Shown one piece after another: positions 20,112-56,037 of a stretch of 64,000 nt of DNA (within the stretch, counting starts at the first letter, position 1; every line of letters starts with the position of its first letter). The position numbers were made by a program, and so were the translations under genes. The notes beneath the pieces were generated by a model. That model was not told the DNA's origin and searched no databases. It saw nothing but the letters and a program-made list of their open reading frames with translations. Origin of the DNA: a candidate division WOR-1 bacterium RIFOXYB2_FULL_37_13 (GTDB lineage: Bacteria; Margulisbacteria; WOR-1; XYC2-FULL-46-14; XYC2-FULL-37-10); contig MEUB01000036.1 of NCBI GenBank assembly GCA_001771535.1, positions 842 through 64,841 of the forward strand. The letters are read 5' to 3'.

Positions 20112-20477
20112 ATGTCAACTTTAGCAGATTATAAAAAGTTTTGGTCAAGAAAATTCAAAGAAGACGAAAAAGCAAAAAAGAAGAAAATAAAACTTTTTAA
20201 GCAGCTTGCATCTGATGCAGCAAATATTTTAATAAAAGATTTTAAAGCCAAAAAGGTTTATCTCTTTGGATCAACTTTGGATGAAAAAATCTTTCATGAA
20301 AAATCAGACATAGATTTGGCAGTTGAAGGATTAAATCCTAAAATACATTTTTCCGCATTATCTGAAATAAAAAAACTGCTTTTTAAAAAAGCAAATGTAG
20401 ATCTTGTCCCTATGGAAGATGCATCGGAAGCACTTAAAGCATTAATTTTCAAAAAGGGAGAAATCTTATATGGCTAA
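20112..20477 (+). CDS. nucleotidyltransferase domain protein (MNT-type, minimal NTase)
   Basis: LFGS...SDIDLAV signature (GS-x9-13-DxD); 8-bp overlap with a downstream HEPN-like partner. Confidence 0.65.
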   Translation: MSTLADYKKFWSRKFKEDEKAKKKKIKLFKQLASDAANILIKDFKAKKVYLFGSTLDEKIFHEKSDIDLAVEGLNPKIHFSALSEIKKLLFKKANVDLVPMEDASEALKALIFKKGEILYG

Positions 20478-20943
20478 ATTTGAAGGACTGATTATAGATA
20501 TAGATTTAGAACTTCAAAATCTTGATCGATTAACTATGGAGCTTGGTCAAACAACACAAGAGATAAAAGAGATTCCGGATTATACGCAGATAAGAGCTAT
20601 TGGCAGTATTTTACATGATTTTTATACAGGACTTGAGAAAATTTTTGAAAGAATCGCGTTAACCATAGATGGAGGAGTTCCTGAAGGTGATGATTGGCAT
20701 ATTCAACTTTTACGCCGAATGCTTGCCAATATTCCAGACCGCAGACCTGCCTTATTTACAAAAAATGTTGGAGAGTCTTTAGGCGAATATCTTAGCTTTA
20801 GACATCTTTTTAGAAATATTTATGGTTTTGAATTAAAATGGGAGCGTATGAGTCCTCTTGTTGAAAAATTCCCTTCTGTTTTCAAAGAAGTTGAATCTCA
20901 ACTTATGAAGTTTATAAACTTCATATCAGAAATACAAAATTAA
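20470..20943 (+). CDS. HEPN domain / nucleotidyltransferase substrate-binding (HI0074-like) partner protein
   Basis: helical ~157-aa protein immediately downstream of the MNT gene with 8-bp overlap; R-x-x-x-x-H-like segment (FRHLFRN). Confidence 0.45.
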   Translation: MAKFEGLIIDIDLELQNLDRLTMELGQTTQEIKEIPDYTQIRAIGSILHDFYTGLEKIFERIALTIDGGVPEGDDWHIQLLRRMLANIPDRRPALFTKNVGESLGEYLSFRHLFRNIYGFELKWERMSPLVEKFPSVFKEVESQLMKFINFISEIQN

Positions 20944-30001: not shown

Positions 30002-30862
30002 TTATGCATTCACGAACTTTTTTTCAAAGTTGTCTGGCGACAGAAACCCTATGGACGAGTGCCTTCTCTGTCGATTATAGAACACTTCGATGTAATTGAA
30101 AATGGACTGCCGCGCCTCCTTTCTTGTGGCATATCTTTCAAAATAGACTTGTTCAGTCTTCAATGAATGAAAGAAACTCTCGGTTATAGCATTATCGTAA
30201 CACCTCCCTTTGCGACTCATGCTTTGAATGAAACCATAATTGTTAAGCAATAGTCTCGTATCTCTGGCCGCATATTGAATACCTCGATCAGAATGAAATA
30301 TTATATTTTTGCCTGGCTGGCGGCTCAAGATAGCACCCTTTATGGCCTTGACCACCAATTGGCTTTCTAGGTGCTTTCCCATAGACCATCCGACAATCTT
30401 TCTGGAAAAGACATCAAGAACAACTGCAAGATAAAGCCAGCCCTCCAATGTCCAGATGTATGTAATATCTGATGTCCAGACTCGATTGGCTGATGCTGAA
30501 ACAAAGTTTTGCTTTAGAATATTTGGAGCTACTGGCAAAGTGTGCTGAGAATCAGTTGTCACTCTAAATTTTCTTCTTGTCTTAGCCACAAATTTGCCTT
30601 TCATAAGACGCTCAATCCTTTTTTTATTGTAATGATAACCTTGGCTCTTAAGTTCGGCACAAACTCTGGGCCGACCATAAAGCTCATGGTTTTCAAAAAA
30701 AATCTTCTTGATCTTATCCAGCAAAACCTCATTTTCTGTTTCTCTTTGGCTTTTCTCTCCCCTTAGCCATTTGTAATAGCCGCTTCGTGATACATCTAAC
30801 AACTGGCACATCTTCTCAACCGGAAAGTCGAAGCATTGCTCTCTTACAAACATAAATCTCAT
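30002..30862 (-). CDS. IS3 family transposase OrfB (DDE integrase core), expressed by -1 frameshift from OrfA
   Basis: rve-type core: WTSDITYIW, HSDRGIQY, YDNAITESFF; IS3 DDE(35)E spacing. Confidence 0.8.
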   Translation of the reverse strand: MRFMFVREQCFDFPVEKMCQLLDVSRSGYYKWLRGEKSQRETENEVLLDKIKKIFFENHELYGRPRVCAELKSQGYHYNKKRIERLMKGKFVAKTRRKFRVTTDSQHTLPVAPNILKQNFVSASANRVWTSDITYIWTLEGWLYLAVVLDVFSRKIVGWSMGKHLESQLVVKAIKGAILSRQPGKNIIFHSDRGIQYAARDTRLLLNNYGFIQSMSRKGRCYDNAITESFFHSLKTEQVYFERYATRKEARQSIFNYIEVFYNRQRRHSSIGFLSPDNFEKKFVNA

Positions 30863-31227: not shown

Positions 31228-31985
31228 CATATCGTGACAGATCAATTACTTTCACCAAGACTAATCCAAGGAAAATTAATATCGGCGAAAGAAAACGCCC
31301 TGAACCTCAAGGCAAGCCAGGCTATATCCGCGTAGATACTGTGCATCAGGGCGATTCCGACAAACAAAAAGGGGTCTATTATATAAATACTGTCGACGAA
31401 GTTACCCAATGGCAGGCAATTGCCGCTGTAGAAAAAATATCTGAAACATATTTACTCGAGGCTCTCTTAGGCTTGCTCAATCAATTTCCATTTGAAATCA
31501 TTGAATTTCATAGCGACAATGGTTCAGAATACATCAACAGACAAGTCGCAGAACTTTTAAACAGACTTTTAATTAAACTTACGAAATCTCGAGCTAGACA
31601 CTGTAATGATAACGCTTTAGTAGAGTCAAAAAATGGGGCTGTAATTAGAAAATGGATGGGCTATGCTCATATTCCTCAGAAACATGCCCAAGACATCAAC
31701 AAATTCTTTAAAAAATATTTTAATTTATATTTAAACTACTACAGACCTTCTATTTTCCCTGAAATTGTATTTTCTGCAAAAAGAAAAGAGGTCAAAAAAT
31801 ACAGATATGAGAATACAATGACCCCTTTCGCAAAACTAAAATCCATTTTTGAATACAAAAAGTTCCTCAAAAAGAATACTTCCGTCGTTGACTTAGAATT
31901 GTTTTTAAGCAATGATAGTCCTAATGAGTTTGCTGAAAAGGTGGTGAAGGCTCAAGATTGTCTCTTTAATGGCATTTCTACCTAA
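31228..31985 (+). pseudogene. C-terminal (DDE catalytic core) part of the IS481-like transposase, downstream of the nested IS3
   Basis: HSDNGSEY and CNDNALVESKNGAVIRKWMGY motifs (rve family); same frame as 29485..30000 once the 1256-bp IS3 and its 3-bp duplication are removed. Confidence 0.6.
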
Positions 31986-41654: not shown

Positions 41655-42758
41655 TTATTTTGAAAGCGCTTCAATTATCTTATCTATGCGATGCCCGCAT
41701 GTATGGCGCGAAAGGACTTTCTTTTGAGCGGCAGATGATATAGTTTGCCTTTCTTTATCGTGTTCCATATAAAAAGCTATCTTTTCTTTTAAATCCTGAG
41801 GTCCTGAAAAAGTAACAATCTCTTTTCCAATCTCAAATAAATCACCAAGATCAGGCCTTAAGTCATCAACCAATTGAAAAGCCCCCAAGCCTCCAAGGAT
41901 AAAAGTCCTGTCATTGGGTGATTTAGCCATAATTTTGTTATTATTGCGATCCATATTGTGGCTAAAGCTGTCACGATGTATATTAAGATTTATTTTTGAT
42001 GCCAATTGATACTTTACGCTTTCTTCATAAGGAACAAACTCTTCTTTTATAAAGCTTTTCAACGTTTCATAATTGCTTAAAGCCCCCTGCCAAGAATCAG
42101 AAAGAACATGCGACCCCAGAAGCTTAACTTTATAGTTTTTTAAAAAACCAGAAAGCTCATCAATTACTTTAACCCTGTAAGAATTTTTAAACGGTGTGCC
42201 GACAAAACAAATATCGCTTTCATAGCTTTTTTCTTTTTGAAAGTTCTCAAATTTTGAAGGAAACGCCAATGGCAAAAAGAAAACATTTTTACACCCATTT
42301 TCCTGATATATAGGAACTGCAGCAGAATCAACCGTAAAAATAAACTCACAAATAGGAGCCATCTCCACGCTCAAATCAGTCCAATATGGGTCGTCAATCT
42401 GCCACATAACCATTTTTCTGCCCAAATCTTTTATTATTTTCAAAACAACCCTGTTTAAATGATGCCCATTCATAAAAAATATAAAATTAGACTTTGAAGA
42501 ATATATCTTTTGAGGGATAAGGGCAGAAGCATATTCTCTTGCAATTTTTATTAACTGATTTAAAGGAGTATCCTTAAATGAGGATTGTAAAAGCTGCCTA
42601 AAAACCAGAGTCTGTTTTGCAAAATCAAAAACTTCAACTTTAATCCCTTTCTCCAAAAAGGCAGCATAAATTACTTCATCCCAAAACTTTTCAACAGGGG
42701 TAATGCCATGCTTTATATAAAAAATTTCCATTTGTGGAGATTCTATCATAAGAATCAA
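41655..42758 (-). CDS. CgeB-family (DUF3880-like) glycosyltransferase-like protein
   Basis: architecture and C-terminal GT-B-like region resemble the spore-maturation CgeB family; convergent with the GT4 gene. Confidence 0.5.
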   Translation of the reverse strand: MILMIESPQMEIFYIKHGITPVEKFWDEVIYAAFLEKGIKVEVFDFAKQTLVFRQLLQSSFKDTPLNQLIKIAREYASALIPQKIYSSKSNFIFFMNGHHLNRVVLKIIKDLGRKMVMWQIDDPYWTDLSVEMAPICEFIFTVDSAAVPIYQENGCKNVFFLPLAFPSKFENFQKEKSYESDICFVGTPFKNSYRVKVIDELSGFLKNYKVKLLGSHVLSDSWQGALSNYETLKSFIKEEFVPYEESVKYQLASKINLNIHRDSFSHNMDRNNNKIMAKSPNDRTFILGGLGAFQLVDDLRPDLGDLFEIGKEIVTFSGPQDLKEKIAFYMEHDKERQTISSAAQKKVLSRHTCGHRIDKIIEALSK

Positions 42759-43181
42759 TTAAACAACAACACCATTTCCTGATGTATCAGGATTAATCAA
42801 TTGACTGCGCATTTGTTTTGCCTTTGATGAAATATTTTCCAACGCGATTAACATTTTATCTATTTCTTTTTTAACAGCGGGATCCGACGAATCCTGTTTT
42901 ATTGTTCGAAGGACACAAATCGCATCTTCTAAATTATTTCCATCCTTAGAACCAGTTAAAAGAGCAACAGCATTTCTTATTTTTTTAGCAATTTCCTTTA
43001 ATTTTTGCTGATTTTCCAGTTTTGCTTCCCCTGTTTCTTTTAAAATCTGAGCCAAAATTTCGTGAAGATCGCGCAATATTTTATTTACCGCCTCGTTGGG
43101 GTCGTTTTTTTCAAAGGCAACCGCAATGTTATTAAGTGACGAAGGATTTATCATTTTACTCATCTCCCTTTGTAATCTCAA
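42759..43181 (-). CDS. hypothetical helical protein (140 aa)
   Basis: ORF, butts up to the upstream gene. Confidence 0.45.
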   Translation of the reverse strand: MRLQREMSKMINPSSLNNIAVAFEKNDPNEAVNKILRDLHEILAQILKETGEAKLENQQKLKEIAKKIRNAVALLTGSKDGNNLEDAICVLRTIKQDSSDPAVKKEIDKMLIALENISSKAKQMRSQLINPDTSGNGVVV

Positions 43182-43187
43182 ACATTA

Positions 43188-44807
43188 TTAAACCGCTTCT
43201 CTTATGTCCTGTGGTCCTCCCGGAATCTGAGAATCAAGATGCGATTCGACTTTCAAGCGTTTCATTAGTTTTAAAATTAAAGACAATCTCTTTTCCAAGT
43301 TTGGATTTTGTGCCCCTTTCACCCTATATTCCAAAGACAAAAACTCATCTTTTGCCGCGTCAAATACTTTAATATTGGCAGAGTCGCGCAAACTATTGAA
43401 TTCTGTTTCATCTATTTCCCAACCCAAACGTTTAAGGTTGCTTAAAATACCTTTAATTTTCTGTTCAACCAGCTTAAATGCCGGCCCGGCCAATTCGTAA
43501 AGAGTTCCTCTTTCTTCCAGCGCGGACGAAAGCATGTCAACCAATCTGAGCCTTGCGGCGGCTATCCCCTCTTTTTCTATATCTTTAAATTCATCGCTTG
43601 AAACACCAAGCTTAATTAATCCGTTCTTTAATTTTGTAACTTTAAAATAGGTCGAAAGAACAGTTGCCATATCTCCGGAAATAGCGCGATGCATGTAAAT
43701 GGCCCGTAATCTGTTTATAAAAAGATCTTTTTCGTCTTCTTTTGAAAACTCATAGGGATTCTTTTTGTTTTTTGACTGTGATCCTAAATCCATATCCCCG
43801 GTTCCTAATGGGATATTGGGCGCAAACATACCGATATCAAATTTCTTTACCTGCCAGTCCTGAGAAAATTCGTTTAAATTAACTCCTACCTTTGTAGCAA
43901 GCTTAAGAAGTTCTTTTAATTCATTTGTAATTTTCTTGTCTGTTTCGGCATCGGCAGCCAAATGTTTGCCAATTAACTTTTCTGCCATCTTCTCTTTGGT
44001 GAAATCTTTAAGGTCAGAAAGCATCTCTTTCTTAATTTCGTCCGCGACCCCTTGCAAAGATTCATTGTCATGCAAGCCGGAAAGCAAGGCAGAATCCAAT
44101 ACAGTGTTTAAAGTTTTGTCTCTGATTATAAGGCCAACACTCTTTTCTTTTGTCAATATCTTTTTAAAAAAAGCGTCCTTTATCTGTTCTCTGACATCCT
44201 GGCGCATGGAATTTTTTACAGTTGTTCTTATGGAAATAAGGTCTTTATTGGTAAATCCTTTTTCGCTGAGCAATTTCTCCAAAGTTTCAAGCTTCTTCTT
44301 AATATCCTGTGAATCATTTACGGCGTATTGGGAATAAAGGGCGGCATATTCTTTGACTGCTTCCTGTGTCTTTGCATCAACTGTAATTTTTAATGCCTGG
44401 TCCTGTCCTTTTTGTCCCTTGCCTCCCTGCTGTTTCTTTTGCTCCCCTGCCTTGCCGACAACATTATTTAATTCTACAAAATCATCAAACTTTTCATCTC
44501 CACGGAACAACTGGCTAAGTTCGTCCTCAAGCTCTCCTTTTGTCTTATCAGATAAACGGTCAGGCTTAAGAGAAACACCGGCTGTTGCCAGTTTTGTAGC
44601 CAATCCGGCCAAGATGTCGAGTCCGGCCTTGCTTGCCGTAACCCCGCTTTGAAGGAGTTTGTCGACATCTGATTTCGCCTCAACTTTTCGAGTTGGAAAA
44701 TCAGATGCCGTTTTTTTATCTATCTGTTTAAGTTCAACAGACAAACTATTGCTCAACGCGACAGCCATTTGCTGCGAAGACGCGTTATCTACAATGTTAA
44801 CTCCCAT
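43188..44807 (-). CDS. hypothetical protein (539 aa, K/E-rich helical)
   Basis: ORF only. Confidence 0.5.
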   Translation of the reverse strand: MGVNIVDNASSQQMAVALSNSLSVELKQIDKKTASDFPTRKVEAKSDVDKLLQSGVTASKAGLDILAGLATKLATAGVSLKPDRLSDKTKGELEDELSQLFRGDEKFDDFVELNNVVGKAGEQKKQQGGKGQKGQDQALKITVDAKTQEAVKEYAALYSQYAVNDSQDIKKKLETLEKLLSEKGFTNKDLISIRTTVKNSMRQDVREQIKDAFFKKILTKEKSVGLIIRDKTLNTVLDSALLSGLHDNESLQGVADEIKKEMLSDLKDFTKEKMAEKLIGKHLAADAETDKKITNELKELLKLATKVGVNLNEFSQDWQVKKFDIGMFAPNIPLGTGDMDLGSQSKNKKNPYEFSKEDEKDLFINRLRAIYMHRAISGDMATVLSTYFKVTKLKNGLIKLGVSSDEFKDIEKEGIAAARLRLVDMLSSALEERGTLYELAGPAFKLVEQKIKGILSNLKRLGWEIDETEFNSLRDSANIKVFDAAKDEFLSLEYRVKGAQNPNLEKRLSLILKLMKRLKVESHLDSQIPGGPQDIREAV

Positions 44808-44819
44808 CTTATTTTCACC

Positions 44820-44996
44820 CTATCCTTTTTTCTTGCCTTCCTCTCCCCAAATGATTTTATTGACCGAGTTTGATTTTAGTTTTTCTGTAAGCCTTGCCAT
44901 CACCACGTTTGACCACTGATTCTGCTGGGCTTTGGAAAGTTTTTCATCAGTAGGTTTCACAGAATCCGAAAGTTTAGGATTATAAGTGCTCGCCAT
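44820..44996 (-). CDS. small hypothetical protein (58 aa from MASTYNP...)
   Basis: AAGGAGG RBS 9 nt upstream of the ATG at 44994-44996; fills an otherwise empty gap. Confidence 0.4.
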   Translation of the reverse strand: MASTYNPKLSDSVKPTDEKLSKAQQNQWSNVVMARLTEKLKSNSVNKIIWGEEGKKKG

Positions 44997-46086
44997 TTGA
45001 ATCAACCTCCTTTTTTAATTGTTCAATCCTAGCCTTTAATTTTGGATCAGGATAAAAATCGTAAGCAATTGTAAATTCCCTCAATGCGTCTTGTTTTTTT
45101 TGACCCATTAAATATGCGCTACCAAGATAAAAATGCGGAAAATAAGTATAATCTTTGATATTAAAACCGTTTAAAGCATTTTTGGGCGGGGATAATTTAC
45201 TTGCGTGCTCAAAAACATGGATAGCATCTTTGGTCTGTTTTGTGAACAGGTAAATAACACCCATCATGTTATAAGCCTCGGCATTAAACGGCTCCAACGC
45301 GATAACTTCTTTTAAGGTTTCAAAAGCTTGCGCGTATTTGCTCTGTTCCATAAGCATCTTTGACATCCTCATCCTTGAGACAACCGAGATAGGATCTTTG
45401 GGCGCAATTGAGACAACCGTAGAATATTCAGAAAACGCGGTTGTCTTGTCTCCAACGTCAAAATAGTTATTTGCCAAAAGGAAGTGGCAATGAAAATCAT
45501 TTTGGTCTTTTTGCAAAGCCTCTTTTAGTATCCGGAAATTTCTCTCCTTCTTTTCCTTTGCCTTCTCCTCACCCAAATCCTTCCCCCAATGAAAAACTTT
45601 AATATCTTGCAAAAATTCCCCTTTGAGCAATTCTCCCGAGGCAGCATAAACCTGCTCATTAAAAGAACGCCCAAAATGAATTCCTTTATTATTTTTAAAA
45701 ACTTTCAGCCTTGAATAAAATCTGGAGCCTTCCTCTGTTCCGAATTGAGCCTGATATATAGGCAAATAATATGCCTCTTTGTCACTCTTCTCTAAAATCT
45801 GGCGAAGCGTATCAAGCGTTTTCTCATTTATAAACTCATCAGCGTCTACCCATATAATCCAATCACCCAAAGCGTGTTTGAGCGATTCATTTCTAGCCGC
45901 CGAAAAATCATCGATCCAAGAAAAAGTATGAATTTTCGCCCCCAGTTTTTTGGCGATTTCAATTGTATTGTCCGTTGATCCGGTATCAACCAAAACAATT
46001 TCATCAACTTTTTTTGCAAGAAGAGGCAAAGTTTTTTCAAGAACTTTTTCTTCGTTTTTTACTATCATACAAACTGAGAGTTTCAT
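44980..46086 (-). CDS. glycosyltransferase family 2 with C-terminal TPR repeats
   Basis: CMIVKNEE..DEIVLVDTGSTDNT..VDADE (GT2 DxD) then TPR-like helices. Confidence 0.7.
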   Translation of the reverse strand: MKLSVCMIVKNEEKVLEKTLPLLAKKVDEIVLVDTGSTDNTIEIAKKLGAKIHTFSWIDDFSAARNESLKHALGDWIIWVDADEFINEKTLDTLRQILEKSDKEAYYLPIYQAQFGTEEGSRFYSRLKVFKNNKGIHFGRSFNEQVYAASGELLKGEFLQDIKVFHWGKDLGEEKAKEKKERNFRILKEALQKDQNDFHCHFLLANNYFDVGDKTTAFSEYSTVVSIAPKDPISVVSRMRMSKMLMEQSKYAQAFETLKEVIALEPFNAEAYNMMGVIYLFTKQTKDAIHVFEHASKLSPPKNALNGFNIKDYTYFPHFYLGSAYLMGQKKQDALREFTIAYDFYPDPKLKARIEQLKKEVDSNGEHL

Positions 46087-46476
46087 TTAATTTTCTCCTA
46101 CAGAAACCGATATTCTACTCTTAGTCAAAAATTTTTCTATTTTCTCCTTTTCTTCATTCTGAGTCTTAAAAACTTTCCCAAAATATTTCTTGTACATATC
46201 AAGCAGCCTTTCAGCCCGCTTTATATATATTTCAAGTTTTTCAAGTTTTATCAAAACTTCTTTTTTATCTGTCCCCAATACTTGCATCTCATATTCAATA
46301 TTTGACCTTTCAGAATAAAAAGATAAAAGATGATTCTTTAACGCGTCATATTCCATCTCTTTTATTTTTATCGGATTATAATCATCTTTCACTCCCAGCT
46401 TGTCGGCTTGGATCAAAAGCTGATTTTCAAGCTCTTGAAAAACTCTCATTTGAGCTTTTATTTTTTTACTGCTCAT
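46087..46476 (-). CDS. hypothetical helical protein (129 aa), chaperone-like size
   Basis: ORF butts up to the downstream GT2 gene; 4-bp overlap with the upstream ORF. Confidence 0.45.
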   Translation of the reverse strand: MSSKKIKAQMRVFQELENQLLIQADKLGVKDDYNPIKIKEMEYDALKNHLLSFYSERSNIEYEMQVLGTDKKEVLIKLEKLEIYIKRAERLLDMYKKYFGKVFKTQNEEKEKIEKFLTKSRISVSVGEN

Positions 46477-47024
46477 ACAATTTTTGCCCCCGTAACAATC
46501 CCAAACAATGCCTTTTCACTTGCGACCTGTGCCAGGCCATTTTTAACAGCAATATTTTTTTCTTCTCTTGCTTTTGACATTAATTTTTCTATTTCAGCAG
46601 GGCTTATGCCAAGCAATCCCATTTGAAAAGTAATTACCCCAACCCCCATTTTAGAAAGTTCGGCCACAAAAAAATTATGGCTGAAAGTATCCATTGCAAG
46701 CTTAACCATCTTATTTTTAAGAACCTGCAAAGTTTTATCCCTGAATCTCAAATTATTATTTTTTGATAACGATTCAACTTCATCTTCTGCCAAAGCCGAA
46801 GATGCGGCGGCAAGATAGACGGTATCCTGCATTCCGACTTTATAAGTTTTGCTTCCATCTTTTCCCTCAACTGTTTCCCACACTAAAGAGGACATTTGTT
46901 GTGTCCCTTCGTTCTGTTTTTCTTTGGGAACTTCTTCTTTTAATTTTTGGTATGCGGCTTTTTGCGCCGAGAACATTTTGTCCTGGCTTAAATTAGCCGC
47001 AATTGTTGGCGCTTCATATGCCAT
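46473..47024 (-). CDS. hypothetical protein (183 aa)
   Basis: ORF only. Confidence 0.45.
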   Translation of the reverse strand: MAYEAPTIAANLSQDKMFSAQKAAYQKLKEEVPKEKQNEGTQQMSSLVWETVEGKDGSKTYKVGMQDTVYLAAASSALAEDEVESLSKNNNLRFRDKTLQVLKNKMVKLAMDTFSHNFFVAELSKMGVGVITFQMGLLGISPAEIEKLMSKAREEKNIAVKNGLAQVASEKALFGIVTGAKIV

Positions 47025-47108: not shown

Positions 47109-49388
47109 TTACTTGTTTTTCTTTTTCTGGCCGCCCTTACGTTCTTCCATCCGTTTTCGCTGCACTTTAGAACTTGACTCCTTATTTCCCATTTTTTGTA
47201 ATTCTTCTCTTCGTTTTTGGGCTTTGGCCGCGGATTGAGCAATTCCGGCCCTGATCTCGGCATCCTTTTTTTGTTCTTGACCTTTATCAATGGCTTCCTG
47301 ATATCTCAACTCCATTTTTCTCTCATGGTAGGCTGCCATATCTTTTTTATAATCCAGGCGGTCTCTCCTATTGCGGACATTGTTAGCAATTGTTCTGCCG
47401 ACATCCTTGTCACCAAATCTTAAAAGCCCCATAACATCGTAAACCGCCCAGTTATTCATATTAACAGCTTCATTGCCATTTTCATCATAAGCAATTCCTG
47501 ACCTATTTCCTGAAAGATTTATTCCCATAAGCTGTGAAGGAAAATATTTTGGATGAGGCCCTCCGGAATCACTGGCTATTTTATTGTTGTTTGGGCCATC
47601 TTTAATCGTTGACGATGTTTCACTATCAGGATTCCAGATACTGCCTTTAGCGCTGTAAAAATCCCACCCCGCACGTTTTCCCAGTTCGTTGTCATCATTT
47701 TTCGTTCTTATGTAAGGCTGAGAATCATAAACACTACCATAACTATCGGTATTAGGGTTTGGATTGTCTATTCCAAAATATTCATACATCAGATTTTGAA
47801 CGTCACCTTGATATTCATCTATTCCGTAATAATCGTCATCATCTACTCCTTGATAATTTTCATCTTTCGCAAGCGACCCAAGATAATTTTTATATGTTTG
47901 CGTATTATTATATAGCCAGTCGTTAAATCTTATAAACGCCAGCTGATCTTTACCCGAAAAGAGCCATCCCGGAAGTCCTCCGCTTTTATCGGTCGGCTTA
48001 AAAAGAAATTCCGAGGGATTAAATCCATACGCGGGAAAAACTGATCTGAAAGAATGCTGCATAGAAATAAAAAGGTTAAGAAAAGCAAGATTATGCGAAT
48101 CTGCCATAAGCCCTCGCATAGGATCAGAACGCCATTTATCAAAAGAGCCGCGCAACGCGGCATCATCTGGAGTTGCTGTTACTGTTACCGTCCCATCGCT
48201 ATTGGTAACATATGTCAAACGGCCTATATCGCTATTGCTCCCAAAGATCTCTGTCATGGCGCTATAAATTCTACGGCGTGATTCGAGCATTCCAAGCATC
48301 AGCTTAAATGCCCCTTCCCCATGATCTCCAGCTTGCAGGTCATAATCAAATAGGCCGCTATTAAAAGAATCGCGTCCTGTGGTAAATGTTTCGCCATCTC
48401 CGCTTTTCCAGTTATTATTGTTATTCCAGTCACTGTCTCCCTTCCATCTTATGTTTTCCCCATCGGTAACCCCATCGCTCCCTGCCTCAATTTTTGCCCC
48501 TTTTTTAAATCCCGACATTATAATTTCATAGTAACTTTCGTCTCCATAATCTTCAAGATTTTTTAAAATACCGTCAGATAATGCTTTAATCGGAGTTCCT
48601 TTTTTTTCTTTATCTTCTTTATTGTAAAAATTGAGCCCTTCATCCCAAATATCAGAATAGGTTTCTGGATTAAAAATTCCCAGTGATAATGGGTTTAAAA
48701 AATGAAATAAATTATCGTAATTTATAGGGCCATTAAGAGATGAGCCCTGATACGTCTCAATAAGATCATGAGCTTTTTTTTCAATTCCATAATGTTTCTT
48801 GTCATTTTGATTAACATCGAAGTGGTTGAATTGGGATACTGACGGATGAAAATCTAGGTTTTCCGCCCTACTCCCTTCAAAAAATCCCCAAGGCAACCCA
48901 TCCCCCTGAGTTCTTGGAACTCTATGCCATGAGCCAAAGTTATCTCTTGTATATCCACGCCCTGCATCGCTATCCCAGACATCGTTAAAACGGGTATGCA
49001 CAGGATTTCCATCTTCATCCAACAGATAATACGGATTTTTATCGTCAGTCCCGTTCCATTGCGGAATATCCTCAGGATCTCCTTCCCATAAAGTCGGAAG
49101 TGGATCGTTGCCCTCCCAAAATGAAGAGCCTTCCGCATATCCGAATTCCGTCAAAGCATCGTAAAACTCTTCTGATGATTCTCCCGCGTAACCTACCTGT
49201 TCAAATCTTGGCAGAAATTTCATCATCTCCATAAGAAAATTAACGCGGCTGCCCAGCCATTGGAAAGAAGAGGGAGTTTCAACCCCATCATGGAGATAAA
49301 ATCTGGAATAATCAGGATTGTCTACTTTCAACGGCTTACGAGGTTTTGGCAGTGTCTCACTATTTCCAAAGGAGTTCATAAAAAACAT
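47109..49388 (-). CDS. hypothetical large protein (759 aa), D/N/G/W/Y-rich with a K/R/E/Q-rich C-terminal tail
   Basis: ORF only; no signal peptide obvious. Confidence 0.5.
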   Translation of the reverse strand: MFFMNSFGNSETLPKPRKPLKVDNPDYSRFYLHDGVETPSSFQWLGSRVNFLMEMMKFLPRFEQVGYAGESSEEFYDALTEFGYAEGSSFWEGNDPLPTLWEGDPEDIPQWNGTDDKNPYYLLDEDGNPVHTRFNDVWDSDAGRGYTRDNFGSWHRVPRTQGDGLPWGFFEGSRAENLDFHPSVSQFNHFDVNQNDKKHYGIEKKAHDLIETYQGSSLNGPINYDNLFHFLNPLSLGIFNPETYSDIWDEGLNFYNKEDKEKKGTPIKALSDGILKNLEDYGDESYYEIIMSGFKKGAKIEAGSDGVTDGENIRWKGDSDWNNNNNWKSGDGETFTTGRDSFNSGLFDYDLQAGDHGEGAFKLMLGMLESRRRIYSAMTEIFGSNSDIGRLTYVTNSDGTVTVTATPDDAALRGSFDKWRSDPMRGLMADSHNLAFLNLFISMQHSFRSVFPAYGFNPSEFLFKPTDKSGGLPGWLFSGKDQLAFIRFNDWLYNNTQTYKNYLGSLAKDENYQGVDDDDYYGIDEYQGDVQNLMYEYFGIDNPNPNTDSYGSVYDSQPYIRTKNDDNELGKRAGWDFYSAKGSIWNPDSETSSTIKDGPNNNKIASDSGGPHPKYFPSQLMGINLSGNRSGIAYDENGNEAVNMNNWAVYDVMGLLRFGDKDVGRTIANNVRNRRDRLDYKKDMAAYHERKMELRYQEAIDKGQEQKKDAEIRAGIAQSAAKAQKRREELQKMGNKESSSKVQRKRMEERKGGQKKKNK

Positions 49389-49411: not shown

Positions 49412-49735
49412 CTACATTGAACTTAAGCGATCTTCAAGTTTGCGCACATTATTCCAAATATCCAAAATCGCGGATTGCGCCTGATCTATTTTTGCCATGC
49501 GATCTTCAAGCAGCAATGATGTTGAAGAAGAATTTACATTTGCTCCGTTTACATAATTATTTCCTATTTTCAAAGTTTTAGTAGGATCCGGATTCACTGA
49601 TAATTCCGCGTAATTTTTTATAAGATCAGCCATTTCAGTATAAAAACTTTTAACAGTTTTTATAACGTCCACATCAGGTGAATGATTGATCTCCCCTCCC
49701 AACGGTGAAAAAAATTTAACATTAAAAAATGCCAT
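49412..49735 (-). CDS. hypothetical small helical protein (107 aa)
   Basis: ORF only. Confidence 0.4.
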   Translation of the reverse strand: MAFFNVKFFSPLGGEINHSPDVDVIKTVKSFYTEMADLIKNYAELSVNPDPTKTLKIGNNYVNGANVNSSSTSLLLEDRMAKIDQAQSAILDIWNNVRKLEDRLSSM

Positions 49736-49836: not shown

Positions 49837-50145
49837 TTAGCTTCTAACAATTTGACGGGTCCTTTCCGCCATTTGATTCTTCTTGGATACAGCGCTTGCA
49901 GCTGTCTGCTCAATTGTCGATAGTTTACTAAGATAACTATCTAAAACAAGAGCCCCTCCACCACTTGATACGTCTATGTCTGTCCCTCCAACATTCACAT
50001 TTATTGTTGTGTCTTCAATCGTATCATTCTCCCCATCAACTGCAATAGCACTTTTGATATCTTCCATCAGTTGATCTATGCTATTATCACAAGAACTTGC
50101 CACATCATAAGCATTCTGTTCAATCGTATTAGGAGTATCTGCCAT
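49837..50145 (-). CDS. hypothetical small acidic protein (102 aa)
   Basis: ORF only. Confidence 0.4.
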   Translation of the reverse strand: MADTPNTIEQNAYDVASSCDNSIDQLMEDIKSAIAVDGENDTIEDTTINVNVGGTDIDVSSGGGALVLDSYLSKLSTIEQTAASAVSKKNQMAERTRQIVRS

Positions 50146-50186: not shown

Positions 50187-50444
50187 CTACACCAATGTAT
50201 TAACATTAAAGCCCCGCATACCAAGTTTATCTGCTATCGCGTGAAATCTGTTAACTGAGATATGTCCTTCCTGTACAAGGTTTTGCATAATTTCAAACTT
50301 ACCAGCCTTGCTGGTAGAAGAATCTTTGGCCAGATAGGAGGAAAGATCGGAAGTCACGCTTGAATTGGAATAAGTAGACCCGCCGGATTCTTCCATATCC
50401 ATCTGCGGCATAGTTACTGTTGAATTTGAAGCTGGGTTTATCAT
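50187..50444 (-). CDS. small protein with a FlgM-like (anti-sigma-28-like) C-terminal helix; identification is tentative
   Basis: C-terminus KFEIMQNLVQEGHISVNRFHAIADKL resembles the FlgM C-terminal consensus (..I..L...I..G.Y.V....IA.K.) as recalled from Bacillus FlgM; disordered S/T-rich N-terminus, as in FlgM. Confidence 0.35.
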   Translation of the reverse strand: MINPASNSTVTMPQMDMEESGGSTYSNSSVTSDLSSYLAKDSSTSKAGKFEIMQNLVQEGHISVNRFHAIADKLGMRGFNVNTLV

Positions 50445-50491: not shown

Positions 50492-50785
50492 TTATTTGTA
50501 GGATTTATCATTTAAAATATTTTTTATTTTTGAAAGGCGCTTAAAAATATTTTTAAGACACTCTTCTTCTTCGTCTATTTTCGGCTCTTTTTCCCAATCA
50601 GCCTTTAATCTAGCCTTGCTCATGTCTGACGCGTAAATTTCGTTGCCGCGAACAACTTTATCGGCGCGCAAAATAAATCCGCGCAGACTTTGCAGAAAAT
50701 TTTGTCCGTTTATTTCCTGCGGCTGGCTTTGTTTTGTTTTTATATCATTTAAATTAAGTGCTGCGTTTATTTTATTTACTTCCAT
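50492..50785 (-). CDS. hypothetical small protein (97 aa)
   Basis: ORF only; 1-bp overlap with the giant upstream gene. Confidence 0.4.
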   Translation of the reverse strand: MEVNKINAALNLNDIKTKQSQPQEINGQNFLQSLRGFILRADKVVRGNEIYASDMSKARLKADWEKEPKIDEEEECLKNIFKRLSKIKNILNDKSYK

Positions 50786-53700
50786 TATACTAGCCCTCCT
50801 CCGATTGTAGGCCTGTTTTTCTGCTCTAAAGATGAAAGAGCCGCCATTTCTCCTGTTTGCGCTAAATAGAGCTCATAAGGATTCTGCCTTCTTCTGTTGT
50901 TGTCCTGGCCTTTAGATGGAGATGGCGCTGAGTTTACAGATATCCCAGCATCTTGTGAGCCGCTTAAATCAACAGGGATTACTATTTTGTCTTTGTCATC
51001 ATCCCTCGCAACTTTAAGATGAATATCCCTTTGTTTGACAGAGTCCTTGATATAATCAGCCGAGCTTTTGGAGGTATCCCAAATATTGTTTAATATATCA
51101 TCATTTTGTTGAGAGGTAATCTCGCGAGCCTCCATTTCAAGATCAATAGCGCCGGATGTGAGCGCGCTTGCGAGAGAATTGCTTTCTGACTTATTAACTC
51201 CCGCGGCCCATCCCTTTTGGTTTGAGCCTGAAGTTTCTGATCTGATTTCAGATAAATAGGCCTCTCTTCTTTCTATCCTCTCTTCTCTTGCCTCTTTAAC
51301 ACTCTTGCGCTTTCCACCGCTTGCGAACCCTGAATCATAAATAATACCAGCCAGTAAAACCGCTATATTCTCCGTTAACCCTCCTATAAACTGGTATAGT
51401 CCTAAGTCCTCGTACTGCTTAATATGTTCATTATACGCAAACATTTTTTTATCATTTTCGGACTTAATGTTTTCTATATCAGCATTAATTTTTCTATACT
51501 CATTAGCAAGTTTTTTATATGAAGACTCATCCCCTCTCGAATAAGCCTCATCCGCGAATTTCCTTTTTTCTTCCGCCAAAATTTTCTTGTCTCGCGCGAC
51601 TTTTTCAGCTGTTTTCATGTTTTCTATATTCTCCCGATAGTCCTCTCTAAGCGCCGCTGTTTTATATACAAAAACCAGATTAACCAAAGAGATTGACGCG
51701 GCAATCAAGCTCTGTACCATTGCCCGCTTTGCAAAATTCATCTGGTTATGGCGCTCAACAATTGTCAAGACATTCTGATAAAGGGTACCTATATTTGCCA
51801 TAGCAGAAGCCTGTTCCGATGAAAAAGCGTCTGTCGCGTTTCCAACTCGCCCTCCCGCACCAGATAAAGTAGCGTGAATTGAGGCTCTCATTTCTGCCTT
51901 TGCTTCCTGCAATTTTGCCAACACGTCACGAATATTAAAAATCCTCTCCATTTTATGACGAAATAATTCTACTACTCCGCTATTTACACCCCATCTGCCC
52001 GCCCCCAAATCTTCTATAATATCCATTGACATATCTTTGTATAATTCCATTTCCATCAATTCAAGATCATCAAGTGTCGAATCTCCAGAATGTTCTTCTT
52101 TTAATCTTTCGGCAATTTTTTCAGGGTCGTATTTTTCTATTTCACGCCCTCGCCTGCTGCGGATTGAATTGATGATAAAATCATAACCGGCATTAGCAAT
52201 CCCCATCATAGGAGAAATAAAGGCAAAAGCTATTTGCGAGTAATTTATCCCAACACCGGCGCAAGCGGTAAGAATCGCAATATCAATTCCCAGTTTAAAT
52301 GAAGCATCAATTATATTTTTTCTTGAATCTAAGGCTCTCTTTTGAGTTTCAATTCTTTCTCCCAAGAACTGCACTAAATTATCAAAAACTTTCAGCTTCC
52401 CTTCAAATTCAGCTCTGTTAACATCGTGAGAAAGCTTCCCTTCTCTTCTTCCGGAAACGCCTGTCATTTCGAGATGGACAAGATTTCTCATTTCTGTTCT
52501 TGCTTCATTTAGAGTCGCCAAAATATTTTGGATGTTGGCAAGGCGGGTTAAAATATCTCTAAGCTTGGCAACATATCCTCCATTTAAACCCCAATATCCG
52601 TCACCAATATCTTTATTTATCCCGTTGGTAAATAACTCTTCATAAACTCGCGCTTCAAGGCTTGCCATACGGGCTTGCGTTGAATTCGGGTTATTTTTTC
52701 TAAGGGTTCTTAGATAGGCGGGAACGCCATCATCCCCATAACTTGAGCCAAAAGAGCCCATCGTCAATTCATATAACAGACTGGAAGTAAATCCGCCTAA
52801 AGCGCCACCGACCCCCCAGCCTATATAAAAAAGTCTTGTTGAAAGACTTGCCGTAGCTTCTGTAGCAGCCCTTGTCCCAGCTTCCAAACCTTCTTCAGCA
52901 AGTTTGCCGCCTTTATCTAAAAGTTTCCCTAATAACCCTCCAAAGGCAGCGCAGACCCCTTGAATAACAAGCGAAAGAGCAAAACTGTTTACGGCGCCTG
53001 CCATTTTTTTATCTTTTGCAATCGCCATATTTTCGGCGTTTTTATATTCATTTAACATAAAAGTCAAAGTATCAAATTTAAACTGAGCTAAGCGCGCATC
53101 AGATTCAACCGCGGCATCAACATAGGCAGAAGATTCCCTACCTCCAACTCCTGTCATTTCCATATGAACCAGATTTCGCATGGAATTTTTTTCTTTACTT
53201 AAGGCAACAATAACTCTTCTTATATTTTGAATTTTTACCAATTGGGTTTGCAGTCTTGCTATCTCCTCAAAGTCTATTTTCTTGAATTCTTCGGATGCCC
53301 TATCTGTAAACCAGTTGCCGGGGTTTGCATTAGACTGTGTCCACCACGATCTAACCCTGCCTTCATCGCTATCCTCATCCTGAATCATACTCTCATCATT
53401 TTGAACAATAATGCCATCTTCCATATTGGAAGTACTATTCATAATATCAAGCATGTCGTTTCCTGTATCTGTATCAGCTTGATCTCCCGTATCGTATGAA
53501 GGAATATCCGGCACATATCCCTCTGTCATAGAATTTGCGACAATTGCGCCTGCCAGTTTTACTCCCGCAGCCAATACGCCAAGTATCAAGCCCGCAACAG
53601 GAACAAAAAATCCGACTACTATCGCAGCTACAGAAAGAAAATTCGAAATAACATTAAAAACCCGCTGTACTTTGGCTTTTTCTATTTCTCCTTCCAGATA

Positions 53701-55356
53701 TTTGACATTGTTTTCAAGCTGCATCTTTTGCTGAGTAAGCCTGATATTTGTCTCAAAAAGTTGAGTTTTATGCTGGTCTTCCATTTCTTGAAGTCTTTGC
53801 GCGTTACTGTTGCTCTCTCTGCCTCCGACCCCTGTCATCTCTTTGTGAACCATGTTGCGCGTTTCCTGTTTCGCGCCTCTTAACATGTTTAACGCTTTTC
53901 TTATATTTTGCAAACCATAAAATTGTTTGCGTATTTTAACAAGTTCATCTTCATCAAGTTCCCAATAACCATTATCCCCTTTATAGACAATATTCGGGAT
54001 ATCAGCAAAGATAGCCATTTCTCCATTTTGCAACGCCTCATCAATTTTTGCGGGGTCACTTTCTATCTGCAAAGAGCCATCTTCCTCTTTATCAGTCGTT
54101 TTATTTAACAAGTCAAGAACTGTACTCATCGCTCTTAAATATTTTTCAACAGCTCTTTTTTGCATTTCAAGACTCATTTCCGTGTTGCTGCCGCCGGTTA
54201 TGGCATCTGTTGCCTGATTCCAGAGGCCATCCGTTGTTGCCTGCGCCGCGGCGACCTCCGCATCAACAATGGCCTGGTTATAATCCATCATCTCTTCAAG
54301 AAGTTTGCCAAACGCCACGCTGACTCTTGCCAGCCTGTTTTGTACTTCTTTGGCAATAATTGTTTTGGTATCCATTCCTTTCATGGGAGTAAGGCCAAGC
54401 AGCTCTTCCACCACAAGATTATACATATCATCTTTCGCTTCCGTCAGCATTTGGAACATAATAAGCAGCCCGCAAAGAAAGCTGACTTTTTCATACCAAT
54501 CAGCCAAACGATCCGTATCAACAACCATCATTCCATCATCGTTGTAATAATAAAAATCATCAGGATCATAATTATTTACCGCGTTATCCAGCTCGTTGCT
54601 GACAGCAACCACAGTCTCCGCTGTTGAACTATTTTCATCTAAGGCCGCAAGATACGAATATTCATAAACATAAGAGGTATCCCCATTTTCATATTGTTGC
54701 TGATGCAGCCATTGGTCAAAATTATATTGGGCGGAATGCTGAGTATTGGCATCCCATGATTCTTCAAATGTTTCGATCTCTTTGCCGTCCTGATAAACCA
54801 GTATTGCATCTTCTTCTCTAGTTGAGGCAGAGGTATCTTTTCTATAGTGGGAATTTACAACCATATAACCGTCATATTTTTTTGATTCTTCTTCCAGATA
54901 AGCCTGCGCCGCTTCTTCACTGTCAAACGTAACTGTAGTTCCATCAGGGTTTGTAATTGTTACCGTAGTCTCTCCTGTAGTATCCACATAAGTAGTCATA
55001 TCATATTCAGCTGAAACATCGGTACTGGCAGATTGGCTCTCAGTTGTAGAAGTTGACGAAGTTGTTGATGTCGTTGATGCAGTTGAAGCAGTCTCCGCAG
55101 ACTGAGAAGATGAAATATAATTAGGGTTATCTTCCGCAAGATTTAAAACTGGCTCACCAAAAACAACCTGACTTTGCGCACTGTTCAAGCTTGAACGAAT
55201 TGAAGAAACATCAACAGATATAGAAGAATCAACTTCAGGCACTTCTATCTTTTCATCAAGAAGGTATGGAGGAGTTACACCCGCGCCACCAATTTGGTCA
55301 GATTCAAGCTGGTCAGAAAACTTTTGTACTTCAACAATTTGATAGAGGTTTCCCAT
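50785..55356 (-). CDS. giant repeat-containing membrane protein (1523 aa) of unknown function
   Basis: four internal repeats, each with the motif NIR..L..L.EAK.EMRNLVH.EMTGVGGR followed ~60-80 aa later by a ~40-aa Gly/Ala-rich hydrophobic hairpin; acidic S/T-rich N-terminus. Confidence 0.6.
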   Translation of the reverse strand: MGNLYQIVEVQKFSDQLESDQIGGAGVTPPYLLDEKIEVPEVDSSISVDVSSIRSSLNSAQSQVVFGEPVLNLAEDNPNYISSSQSAETASTASTTSTTSSTSTTESQSASTDVSAEYDMTTYVDTTGETTVTITNPDGTTVTFDSEEAAQAYLEEESKKYDGYMVVNSHYRKDTSASTREEDAILVYQDGKEIETFEESWDANTQHSAQYNFDQWLHQQQYENGDTSYVYEYSYLAALDENSSTAETVVAVSNELDNAVNNYDPDDFYYYNDDGMMVVDTDRLADWYEKVSFLCGLLIMFQMLTEAKDDMYNLVVEELLGLTPMKGMDTKTIIAKEVQNRLARVSVAFGKLLEEMMDYNQAIVDAEVAAAQATTDGLWNQATDAITGGSNTEMSLEMQKRAVEKYLRAMSTVLDLLNKTTDKEEDGSLQIESDPAKIDEALQNGEMAIFADIPNIVYKGDNGYWELDEDELVKIRKQFYGLQNIRKALNMLRGAKQETRNMVHKEMTGVGGRESNSNAQRLQEMEDQHKTQLFETNIRLTQQKMQLENNVKYLEGEIEKAKVQRVFNVISNFLSVAAIVVGFFVPVAGLILGVLAAGVKLAGAIVANSMTEGYVPDIPSYDTGDQADTDTGNDMLDIMNSTSNMEDGIIVQNDESMIQDEDSDEGRVRSWWTQSNANPGNWFTDRASEEFKKIDFEEIARLQTQLVKIQNIRRVIVALSKEKNSMRNLVHMEMTGVGGRESSAYVDAAVESDARLAQFKFDTLTFMLNEYKNAENMAIAKDKKMAGAVNSFALSLVIQGVCAAFGGLLGKLLDKGGKLAEEGLEAGTRAATEATASLSTRLFYIGWGVGGALGGFTSSLLYELTMGSFGSSYGDDGVPAYLRTLRKNNPNSTQARMASLEARVYEELFTNGINKDIGDGYWGLNGGYVAKLRDILTRLANIQNILATLNEARTEMRNLVHLEMTGVSGRREGKLSHDVNRAEFEGKLKVFDNLVQFLGERIETQKRALDSRKNIIDASFKLGIDIAILTACAGVGINYSQIAFAFISPMMGIANAGYDFIINSIRSRRGREIEKYDPEKIAERLKEEHSGDSTLDDLELMEMELYKDMSMDIIEDLGAGRWGVNSGVVELFRHKMERIFNIRDVLAKLQEAKAEMRASIHATLSGAGGRVGNATDAFSSEQASAMANIGTLYQNVLTIVERHNQMNFAKRAMVQSLIAASISLVNLVFVYKTAALREDYRENIENMKTAEKVARDKKILAEEKRKFADEAYSRGDESSYKKLANEYRKINADIENIKSENDKKMFAYNEHIKQYEDLGLYQFIGGLTENIAVLLAGIIYDSGFASGGKRKSVKEAREERIERREAYLSEIRSETSGSNQKGWAAGVNKSESNSLASALTSGAIDLEMEAREITSQQNDDILNNIWDTSKSSADYIKDSVKQRDIHLKVARDDDKDKIVIPVDLSGSQDAGISVNSAPSPSKGQDNNRRRQNPYELYLAQTGEMAALSSLEQKNRPTIGGGLV

Positions 55357-55439: not shown

Positions 55440-55658
55440 TTATTTTTGCAGGTTTTTCAACTGTTCCTGCAAGGTTTTTTTCGCATTTTCAAGCTCTTTG
55501 TTGACGGAGGCAATTTTATTGTCAAGTTTTTTGATATCTTCTTCGGCTTTTTTCTTTATGAGTGTATAGCGTATAATTTGAAAAGTATTATATATTATAA
55601 AGGCGACTCCCACCCCGACAAAAAATGTCACCCAATTTATAGTTGTTAAAAATTCCAT
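55440..55658 (-). CDS. small bitopic membrane protein with a coiled-coil tail (72 aa)
   Basis: N-terminal TM (WVTFFVGVGVAFIIY) then KKLDNKIASVNKELENAKK heptads. Confidence 0.45.
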   Translation of the reverse strand: MEFLTTINWVTFFVGVGVAFIIYNTFQIIRYTLIKKKAEEDIKKLDNKIASVNKELENAKKTLQEQLKNLQK

Positions 55659-55680
55659 TTTGTTCTCCTATTTTACTCCA

Positions 55681-56037
55681 TCACACATTACTGTCAACTA
55701 CGGGATTATCCGCCGTAGGATTGCCGGCCATAGGGATAGAAAGGTCGCCGGATTCTTTTTCTTCTCTTTCAACTTTAACACGTGATTCATGCGCGCCAAA
55801 TAAAAATTCCGCCACAAGATCAAGAAGGCTTTTAGTCGCGGTCGCATGCATTTTAAATTCCAAGGTATCTATTTCTGCTCCTTCAGGAGTATACCTGTTA
55901 GTCACAGAAGTTTGTAACGGCTCATCAACAAGTTTCCGTTTAGCAGCCTTAATTTCACCGGCAAGGTCAGGCTCATATTTAATTGCTTTACTATTTCCAC
56001 TCTTCGGATTCATTGATATCGGCGATGTATAAGCCAT
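55681..56037 (-). CDS. hypothetical protein (118 aa)
   Basis: ORF only. Confidence 0.4.
   Translation of the reverse strand: MAYTSPISMNPKSGNSKAIKYEPDLAGEIKAAKRKLVDEPLQTSVTNRYTPEGAEIDTLEFKMHATATKSLLDLVAEFLFGAHESRVKVEREEKESGDLSIPMAGNPTADNPVVDSNV

Follow-up and report, generated by a model that had tools for sequence, protein, structure and literature searches.

The 64-kb stretch of DNA analyzed here, which we call the window, carries a minus-strand gene for a protein of 1523 amino acids (aa), the giant protein. Its sequence is that of OGC21764.1 ("hypothetical protein A2310_00460") from candidate division WOR-1 bacterium RIFOXYB2_FULL_37_13, a member of the WOR-1/Saganbacteria lineage whose genome was assembled from a metagenome of Rifle groundwater. 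The giant protein is built of five diverged modules (r0 to r4), and it is encoded in a cluster with partner genes that recur beside it in distant relatives. Neither sequence nor fold places the giant protein or any of its conserved partners in a described family, and the fused five-module architecture has no solved counterpart. Our favored but tentative reading is that the giant protein is the single-chain, membrane-anchored, helical-bundle hub of an envelope complex specific to the Margulisbacteria and Saganbacteria, a function that we infer.

Five diverged modules in a fixed order

An earlier reading of this DNA, made from the letters alone (the sequence-only reading), had described four repeats that each pair a motif with a hydrophobic hairpin. 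The four motif strings that it quoted are all present, within about 60 nt of the positions it gave; they begin at aa 484, 711, 941, and 1141 (DNA ~53.91, 53.23, 52.54, and 51.94 kb), with spacings of 227, 230, and 200 aa. Formal alignment of the repeat units confirmed their self-similarity, the pairwise BLASTP comparisons giving 25-34% identity with E values of 6e-14 to 2.5e-5 (32-58 bits), far beyond chance. The similarity spans about 200 residues per unit, reaching from about 50 aa before the motif (G-x-G-Y-W-x-L-D ... L-R) to about 100 aa after it. There are four significant repeats of about 200-230 aa, each with the motif R-N-L-V-H-x-E-M-T-G-V-G-G-R and a downstream pair of hydrophobic helices. 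A profile built from the repeat units further detected a fifth copy, weak and degenerate, at aa 264-373. The count of four was therefore right for the significant copies but missed this N-terminal one, and the protein comprises five modules in a fixed order (Table 1).

An exhaustive search with an 8-unit repeat profile against 1.84 billion representative proteins found 149 relatives at E ≤ 1e-3, 121 of them at E ≤ 1e-10. Nearly all are 1200-5150 aa long, each with four or five repeat matches. Word-indexed searches, with a single sequence or a 40-sequence alignment, returned, apart from the giant protein, a single relative (1730 aa, 54% identical). When the units of the relatives were counted from the C-terminal end, the last unit matched r4 best in 111 of 142 cases, the penultimate matched r3 in 89 of 127, the third from the end r2 in 68 of 109, the fourth r1 in 62 of 77, and the fifth the degenerate r0 in 20 of 28. 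The repeats are thus positionally orthologous, indicating that the divergence of the five modules predates the radiation of the family and that their order has been maintained since.

The pairing of motif and hydrophobic segment is also a property of the family. A hydrophobic segment lies about 60 aa past the motif in 78% of 485 repeats, compared with 18% of control windows; by position, it was found in 89% of r1, 73% of r2, 82% of r3, 85% of r4, and 33% of r0 units. The proposed pairing is accordingly real and conserved, except that the second hydrophobic helix is displaced in r2 (to aa 839-868) and in r4 (to aa 1318-1341).

All relatives with an organism name belong to WOR-1, Saganbacteria, or Margulisbacteria, from groundwater and marine lineages among others, and all are annotated as "hypothetical". 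A degenerate, hand-made DNA pattern for the core of the motif (the tip motif, after its place in the model described below), applied to one genome per GTDB species, found eight loci only, and the informative titles among them were all WOR-1, Saganbacteria, or Margulisiibacteriota. The literature searched on the Margulisbacteria and Saganbacteria phyla yielded nothing relevant to the giant protein.

The first ~95 residues form a peptide that is confined to the giant protein and kept across its family. The N-terminal 250 aa carry a net charge of -36 and include the Ser/Thr tract TASTASTTSTTSS, and the region after repeat 4 is Lys/Glu-rich, both in agreement with the sequence-only reading; the length of the Lys/Glu-rich C-terminal tail varies across the family. 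In P0017, P0018, P0020, and at least 26 other relatives, a borderline transglutaminase-like domain of the cysteine-protease type (aa ~120-285) directly follows the N-terminal peptide. These relatives, at least 29 in all, have G[DN]C[ED] between aa ~160 and ~230, and the Transglut_core matches score just below threshold (21-22.6 bits vs the cutoff of 23). The catalytic Cys is gone from the giant protein of the window, in which the corresponding region is degenerate.

Predicted fold and conserved residues

An AlphaFold2 model of aa 420-1420 (1001 residues), based on a 45-sequence family alignment, reached a mean predicted local distance difference test score (pLDDT) of 79.1 and a predicted template modeling score (pTM) of 0.72. 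In the model, each module runs from a helix of 17-19 residues through a small beta-hairpin, which carries the conserved G-x-G-Y-x-x-L-[ND], to a helix A of 40 residues, a tip loop of 7-8 residues, a helix B of 65-100 residues, and a return helix C. The conserved motif begins in the last part of helix A and finishes in the tip loop (VGGRESN in r1). In r1-r4, helix B is predicted to continue uninterrupted into the hydrophobic segment and then to pair with helix C. In r1 (aa 563-611) and r3 (aa 1015-1062), the two hydrophobic helices are linked by loops of 1-4 residues and form a bilobed domain of 40-60 residues, whereas those of r2 are parted by an Ala/Glu-rich loop of low model confidence and those of r4 by an 81-aa Lys/Glu-rich helical (coiled-coil) hairpin. 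Helix B of r4 is modeled with 100 residues, 37 of them beyond the hydrophobic stretch, so that the coiled-coil hairpin of 81 residues would project from the far side of the r4 pair. That the pTM reaches 0.72 over 1001 residues suggests that the modules are packed into one body.

Residue conservation, measured over 105 repeat units, had one peak covering the last residues of helix A together with the tip (R500, V503, H504, M507, T508, and G509 in r1 numbering), with further peaks at a Tyr just past the hairpin and in the beta-hairpin. Shortly before its hydrophobic part, helix B carries a near-invariant Asn (N549, present in 98 of the 105 units; N776 in r2 and N1204 in r4). The giant protein shows all the traits by which we define the family: four or five modules in the order r0-r4, the tip motif, the helix-B Asn, hydrophobic pairs in r1-r4, and the N-terminal peptide.

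A Foldseek search of the PDB gave no specific fold match (best E 0.25), and the nearest structural matches were generic coiled-coil or BAR/Vipp1-type membrane-shaping proteins. The likeness to ESCRT-III, PspA, and Vipp1 is generic and confined to the level of the helical hairpin, and ESCRT-III proteins, unlike the giant protein, have no hydrophobic hairpin. Homology to PspA/ESCRT-III was rejected, as hhalign gave a probability of 0.4% for the repeat profile against E. coli PspA, and so was membership of PspA_IM30/Snf7, as the giant protein has no significant Pfam match.

These generic matches, together with the all-helical predictions, the coiled-coil tails of variable length, and the lack of any enzymatic or transport domain, are what would be expected if the giant protein were a membrane-attached cytoskeletal or coiled-coil scaffold without a conduit role, forming with the 539-aa and 183/129-aa partners (see below) a sub-membrane filament or plaque for shape, division, or polarity, with the hairpins as anchors only. 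One locus (L006) even has SPOR-MreB-MreC-PBP2 genes about 2.5 kb from the cluster. We nevertheless consider a pure scaffold improbable, since four conserved hairpins and position-specific modules exceed the needs of anchoring, the conservation of the Asn layer and of the tips speaks for a specific assembly rather than for a filament repeat, the comparison with the PspA profile was negative, and the proximity to MreB occurs in one lineage only.

No match to known families or to phage proteins

The sequence-only reading could place the repeat in no known family, and this held throughout: the giant protein has no significant match in Pfam, NCBIfam, PHROGs, or PADLOC, a Pfam scan of the 1523 aa at E ≤ 0.01 returning only a sub-threshold match to AnfO, and neither the repeat profile nor the whole protein matched a PDB sequence.

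That reading had itself stated that assignment to a known family would overturn it, with a phage tape-measure protein as the example. Like tape-measure proteins, the giant protein is very long, helical, and internally repetitive, with hydrophobic segments, and some relatives carry a protease-like domain, as do some tape-measure proteins; an IS3-type transposase lies about 20 kb from the giant gene. Against this, the best hit of ten cluster proteins among 38,880 PHROG families had an E of 0.0047, far from significant; tblastn with the repeat region was empty in 50,697 phage records and 72,556 plasmids; and the viral contigs of IMG/VR contained no relative by the repeat-2-type patterns RNLVHME and MTG[IV]GGR[EDQ]. 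Tape-measure genes sit in the structural module of the tail, with chaperone genes upstream and genes for the distal tail or baseplate downstream, whereas the neighbors of the giant gene belong to no phage family and are flanked by housekeeping genes; conservation of the cluster is moreover phylum-wide. The neighborhoods examined, namely the 64-kb window and eight other loci (L001, L006, L008, L017-L020, and relatives), contained no capsid, portal, terminase, tail, or conjugation gene. A phage or plasmid origin was rejected on these searches, and a component of a prophage, tailocin, or conjugative element, the tape-measure protein included, can be regarded as essentially refuted.

Hydrophobic segments, topology, and the favored reading

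With the Kyte-Doolittle scale (19-aa window, score >1.3), hydrophobic segments were detected at aa 563-611 (peak 2.63), 785-814, 1015-1047, 1211-1236, and 1318-1341. The hairpin of r1 comprises about 45 residues, nearly all of them hydrophobic. The segments of about 40 residues in the sequence-only reading are thus real on this scale, with the restriction that only the hairpin of repeat 1 is strongly hydrophobic.

Lys and Arg are biased to the outside of the hairpins, with 23 on the outer flanks vs 9 in the inter-helix loops, and the hairpins of r3 and r4 are followed by strongly basic stretches. Under the positive-inside rule, such a bias would make the soluble hairpins cytoplasmic, along with both termini, a placement that agrees with the absence, as read by eye, of any N-terminus resembling a signal peptide among the cluster proteins. 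The pattern fits ordinary membrane insertion with the soluble parts in the cytoplasm.

The anatomy argues for a single-chain pseudo-oligomer because the membrane hairpins are four in number and equivalent, the soluble hairpins are long and have conserved tips, and each long helix carries a conserved polar residue at the same level. The topology deduced from Lys and Arg and the lack of signal peptides across the cluster then lead us to favor a membrane-anchored hub. What the analysis shows is the repeats and their fixed order, the family, the conserved hydrophobic pairs, the predicted helical hairpins, the conserved gene neighborhood, and the lack of any known domain; insertion into the membrane, topology, module bundling, tip docking, and a possible activity as channel or scaffold are what we infer. 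The four hydrophobic pairs would make up a group of roughly eight helices in the cytoplasmic membrane, possibly forming a conduit, and the soluble helical hairpins would be packed as one cytoplasmic stalk of about 60-70 Å. The conserved tips and the N-terminal peptide may dock the soluble partners that lack signal peptides (the 539-, 183/129-, 102/107-, and 759-aa proteins), and the 72-aa single-helix protein might join the membrane part. The acidic N-terminal region would be a variable arm, which bears a transglutaminase-like domain in many relatives and is probably O-glycosylated in the Saganbacteria clade by the two glycosyltransferases of the cluster.

Several observations weigh against such a hub. 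Only the r1 hairpin is clearly membrane-grade; those of r2-r4 are marginal, with +2.3 to +6 kcal/mol on a hydrophobicity scale, which is compatible with shielded segments or with insertion after translation. The bundling of the modules and their common membrane band come only from pTM and secondary structure. The giant protein is strongly acidic overall, and its N-terminal region and the 759-aa partner are rich in Asp, Asn, Ser, Thr, Gly, Trp, and Tyr, a composition typical of extracellular proteins. In the relative P0095, dockerin/EF-hand calcium loops (aa 169-653) take the place of the transglutaminase-like domain. Cytoplasmic glycosyltransferases next to Ser/Thr-rich proteins usually mark proteins that are later exported. 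Finally, none of the cluster members gives a readable function.

The gene cluster and its conserved partners

The giant gene belongs to a 15-gene minus-strand run from 57230 to 41655, in which only two other genes have Pfam domains, both glycosyltransferases; searches of the neighbors against NCBIfam, PHROGs, and PADLOC added nothing beyond these two. The synteny of the cluster is kept in the closest relative (L001), and seven partners recur beside the giant gene in distant loci where the giant protein is only 15-20% identical. At all loci examined, housekeeping genes flank the cluster.

The best-conserved protein of the cluster is the 539-aa partner, which matched its counterparts at distant loci with E values of 1e-72 to 1e-74; its model is all-helical, confident only at aa 355-525, and has no fold relative. 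The 183- and 129-aa partners are one fused protein in L006 (4486-5244, 252 aa) and in L018 (1428-2162, 244 aa), indicating that the two proteins work together. The 759-aa partner has a body rich in Trp, Tyr, Gly, Asn, and Asp and a basic Lys/Arg/Glu tail. PDB sequence searches with the 539-, 759-, and 389-aa neighbors gave no match, and no cluster protein contains a Walker A motif.

Comparisons with hhalign of all pairs showed the partners to be unrelated to one another and to the repeat of the giant protein, and we therefore rejected the idea that they are stand-alone repeat copies or mutual paralogues. Three other assignments were tried and dropped. A MotB/ExbD-like role of the 72-aa protein does not fit its hydrophobic helix, which has no conserved acidic residue; a type VII-like system was rejected because the small proteins have no WxG motif and the cluster proteins no FtsK-type P-loop; and for a flagellar late-gene cluster, of which the gene sizes and glycosyltransferase neighbors are suggestive, no flagellar Pfam family was found even at E ≤ 1.

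One of the two glycosyltransferases, with GT2 and TPR domains, lies inside the cluster, and the other, CgeB-like, at its distal end. The cluster at L019 also has glycosyltransferases, including a Glyco_trans_1_2 gene (L019 20439-21503 and 23920-24936). Cluster-internal glycosyltransferases thus occur in two divergent Saganbacteria-type loci (window/L001 and L019) and are absent from the other lineages examined, a distribution that suggests clade-specific glycosylation of the Ser/Thr-rich tracts in the giant and 389-aa proteins. The GT2 and TPR enzyme is the candidate modifier of these tracts.

Promoter and terminator scans gave no more sites than shuffled sequence. Two open reading frames (ORFs) of the opposite strand, 54160-54627 (+) of 155 aa and 55643-56032 (+) of 129 aa, are antisense to the giant gene and the 118-aa gene, respectively, and are most likely spurious because they lie wholly within conserved coding regions of the other strand.

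Table 1. Positions in the window of the parts of the giant protein and of the genes of its cluster
Feature	Residues (aa)	Position (nt)	Strand	Remarks
Giant gene	1-1523	50785..55356	-	ATG start
N-terminal peptide	1-95	55072..55356	-	Conserved in the family; AGxAxVxPxY[IL] ... [SG]NYIxN
Variable region	96-263	54568..55071	-	Acidic and Ser/Thr-rich
Module r0	264-433	54058..54567	-	Degenerate repeat (helix, tip, helix) without hydrophobic hairpin
Module r1	434-660	53377..54057	-	
r1 tip motif	500-513	53818-53859	-	RNMVHKEMTGVGGR
r1 hydrophobic hairpin	563-611	53524-53670	-	Strong
Module r2	661-890	52687..53376	-	
r2 tip motif	727-740	53137-53178	-	
r2 hydrophobic helices	785-812; 839-868	52921-53004; 52753-52842	-	
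Module r3	891-1090	52087..52686	-	
r3 tip motif	957-970	52447-52488	-	
r3 hydrophobic hairpin	1015-1062	52171-52314	-	
Module r4	1091-1345	51322..52086	-	
r4 tip motif	1157-1170	51847-51888	-	RASIHATLSGAGGR
r4 hydrophobic helices	1211-1236; 1318-1341	51649-51726; 51334-51405	-	
C-terminal region	1346-1523	50785..51321	-	Basic juxta-membrane stretch (GGKRKSVKEAREERIERRE), then helical Lys/Glu-rich tail
389-aa gene, first of cluster		56061..57230	-	Ser/Thr-rich N-terminus; kept only in close relative L001
118-aa gene		55681..56037	-	Kept only in close relative L001; no known domain
72-aa partner		55440..55658	-	N-terminal hydrophobic helix and coiled coil; co-conserved in distant relatives
97-aa gene		50492-50785	-	Directly downstream of giant gene; only in L001; no known domain
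85-aa gene		50187-50444	-	Downstream of giant gene; only in L001; no known domain
102-aa partner		49837..50145	-	Acidic; L001, L008, L010, L017; no known domain
107-aa partner		49412..49735	-	L001, L008, L017; no known domain
759-aa partner		47109..49388	-	L001, L008, L018; no known domain
183-aa partner		46473..47024	-	
129-aa partner		46087..46476	-	L001, L006, L008, L017, L018
GT2 + TPR glycosyltransferase		44980..46086	-	Part of the family only (window, L001, L019)
539-aa partner		43188..44807	-	Best-conserved in cluster
140-aa gene		42759..43181	-	Only in close relative L001; no significant domain match
CgeB-like glycosyltransferase		41655..42758	-	Glyco_trans_1_2 and DUF3880; distal end of cluster

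Secretion, membrane conduits, and known systems

From the length of the hairpins, the sequence-only reading had proposed insertion into a membrane after translation, as in translocon or pore-former components or in effectors. In its full form, this would be a secreted pore-former or translocon that is made soluble with its hairpins shielded by the helical bundle or by small co-encoded proteins, is exported independently of a Sec signal, and then inserts its four hairpins post-translationally into the outer layers of its own cell or the membrane of another, the N-terminal enzyme-like domain acting outside the cell. The marginal hydrophobicity of the r2-r4 hairpins speaks for it, as does the highly acidic character of a protein without a signal peptide. 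The conserved N-terminal peptide, which occurs in the giant protein only, might serve as an export signal, and the four genes of ~85-107 aa directly downstream are in the size range usual for chaperones or small secreted subunits. Also in keeping with it are the borderline transglutaminase-like domains of many relatives and the dockerin/EF-hand loops of one, the TPR-glycosyltransferase inside the cluster beside Ser/Thr-rich tracts, and the extracellular-looking composition of the N-terminal arm and the 759-aa partner.

On the other side, no secretion ATPase, secretin, export-gate component, other secretion-apparatus gene, or known chaperone family was found in the window or at the eight loci, where phage and conjugation genes were likewise absent, and Pfam gave no match to translocator, colicin, ClyA, or Hbl families. 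The extreme hydrophobicity of the r1 hairpin also argues against it, and the distribution of Lys and Arg (23 vs 9) favors cytoplasmic flanks and ordinary insertion. Module identities are fixed, and conservation of the family extends across the phylum, groundwater and marine lineages included; such conservation among housekeeping genes looks more like core cell biology than like an effector. We therefore judge a secreted pore-former possible but rather unlikely, and secretion, post-translational insertion, and an effector role as first proposed did not gain support.

Two known systems come to mind in this connection. Type III translocators (IpaB/SipB/YopB, SseC-like) likewise place two hydrophobic helices after a long antiparallel coiled-coil hairpin, lack a Sec signal, and are acidic and helical. 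However, they have one hairpin and one membrane pair, whereas the giant protein has four plus one degenerate per chain; it has no match to the Pfam families SseC, IpaB_EvcA, and relatives and no significant NCBIfam match; neither a type III apparatus nor a TPR class II chaperone is encoded in the window or at the eight loci; and its family is limited to an uncultivated, largely environmental (groundwater and marine) phylum. Chlamydial Inc proteins share a bilobed hydrophobic segment of about 40 residues (r1, r3) beside a coiled coil. They are small, with one hairpin near the N-terminus, dependent on type III secretion for insertion into the vacuole membrane of a host, and found in Chlamydiae only, whereas the giant protein comes from WOR-1/Saganbacteria, has no type III genes nearby, and shows no detected sequence relationship to them.

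A possible structural analogy is with oligomeric channels or stators of the CorA, MCU, and MotA/ExbB type, in which a soluble helix runs straight into the first membrane helix and is followed by a return helix. Further likenesses are the four to five equivalent modules and the adjacent gene for a small single-helix partner. The giant protein differs in that its modules are fused in one chain and diverged, in that its conservation is strongest at a tip far from the membrane and at the helix-B Asn rather than in a pore loop, and in that the membrane helix of the 72-aa partner has no conserved acidic residue. Known polytopic transporters and channels (CorA, MotA/ExbB, MCU, and others) gave no profile match and no match to a solved chain by fold. 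A more far-reaching reading is that the giant protein forms a single-chain, pseudo-tetrameric pore, the membrane conduit of an unrecognized export or surface-assembly apparatus unique to Margulisbacteria and Saganbacteria, with the co-encoded proteins, which are without signal peptides and might be glycosylated, as its cargo or as the structure built upon it and the tips as a docking or gating site. This reading is quite unlikely in our estimate.

The surrounding window

Outside the cluster, the window is ordinary chromosome, with genes for LptF/G, SerRS, TyrRS, YgbB, a TrpB-like protein, IGPS, GltX, MraW, UDG, an RluA-type synthase, RNase T, Pta, and PmbA; neither tRNA genes nor Rfam matches were found in it. 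Mobile elements were represented only by the IS3-type transposase mentioned above (rve, HTH_21) and a second, partial integrase-core ORF, at 30002-30862 (-) and 31341-31985 (+). Three large ORFs have no Pfam match, 13240-16443 (-) of 1067 aa, 22680-23900 (+) of 406 aa, and 23897-25951 (+) of 684 aa. The first of these adjoins TyrRS/YgbB, and in distant relatives it is the giant-gene cluster that adjoins TyrRS-YgbB-PdxJ-SLH. The genome encodes a FemAB-family peptidyltransferase together with LptF/G (6923-7996 (-) and 3468-4541 (+)), an unusual combination that may bear on the envelope type of the lineage. A HepT-like toxin-domain gene (20470-20943, +) is probably part of a HepT/MNT toxin-antitoxin pair.

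Significance

Margulisbacteria and Saganbacteria are uncultivated sister lineages of Cyanobacteria, and to our knowledge their cell biology is almost wholly unknown. The present analysis adds a large, apparently phylum-wide gene cluster for a giant five-module membrane protein and at least seven co-conserved partners, none of which matches a described family or solved fold. The model predicts a confident fold for the giant protein, in which fused helical-hairpin stalks with conserved tips would continue into membrane hairpins. A role as membrane hub, channel, or export device would make the giant protein a new kind of bacterial envelope machine; even as a scaffold only, it would clearly exemplify an ancient pseudo-oligomer that has been fused into a single chain.

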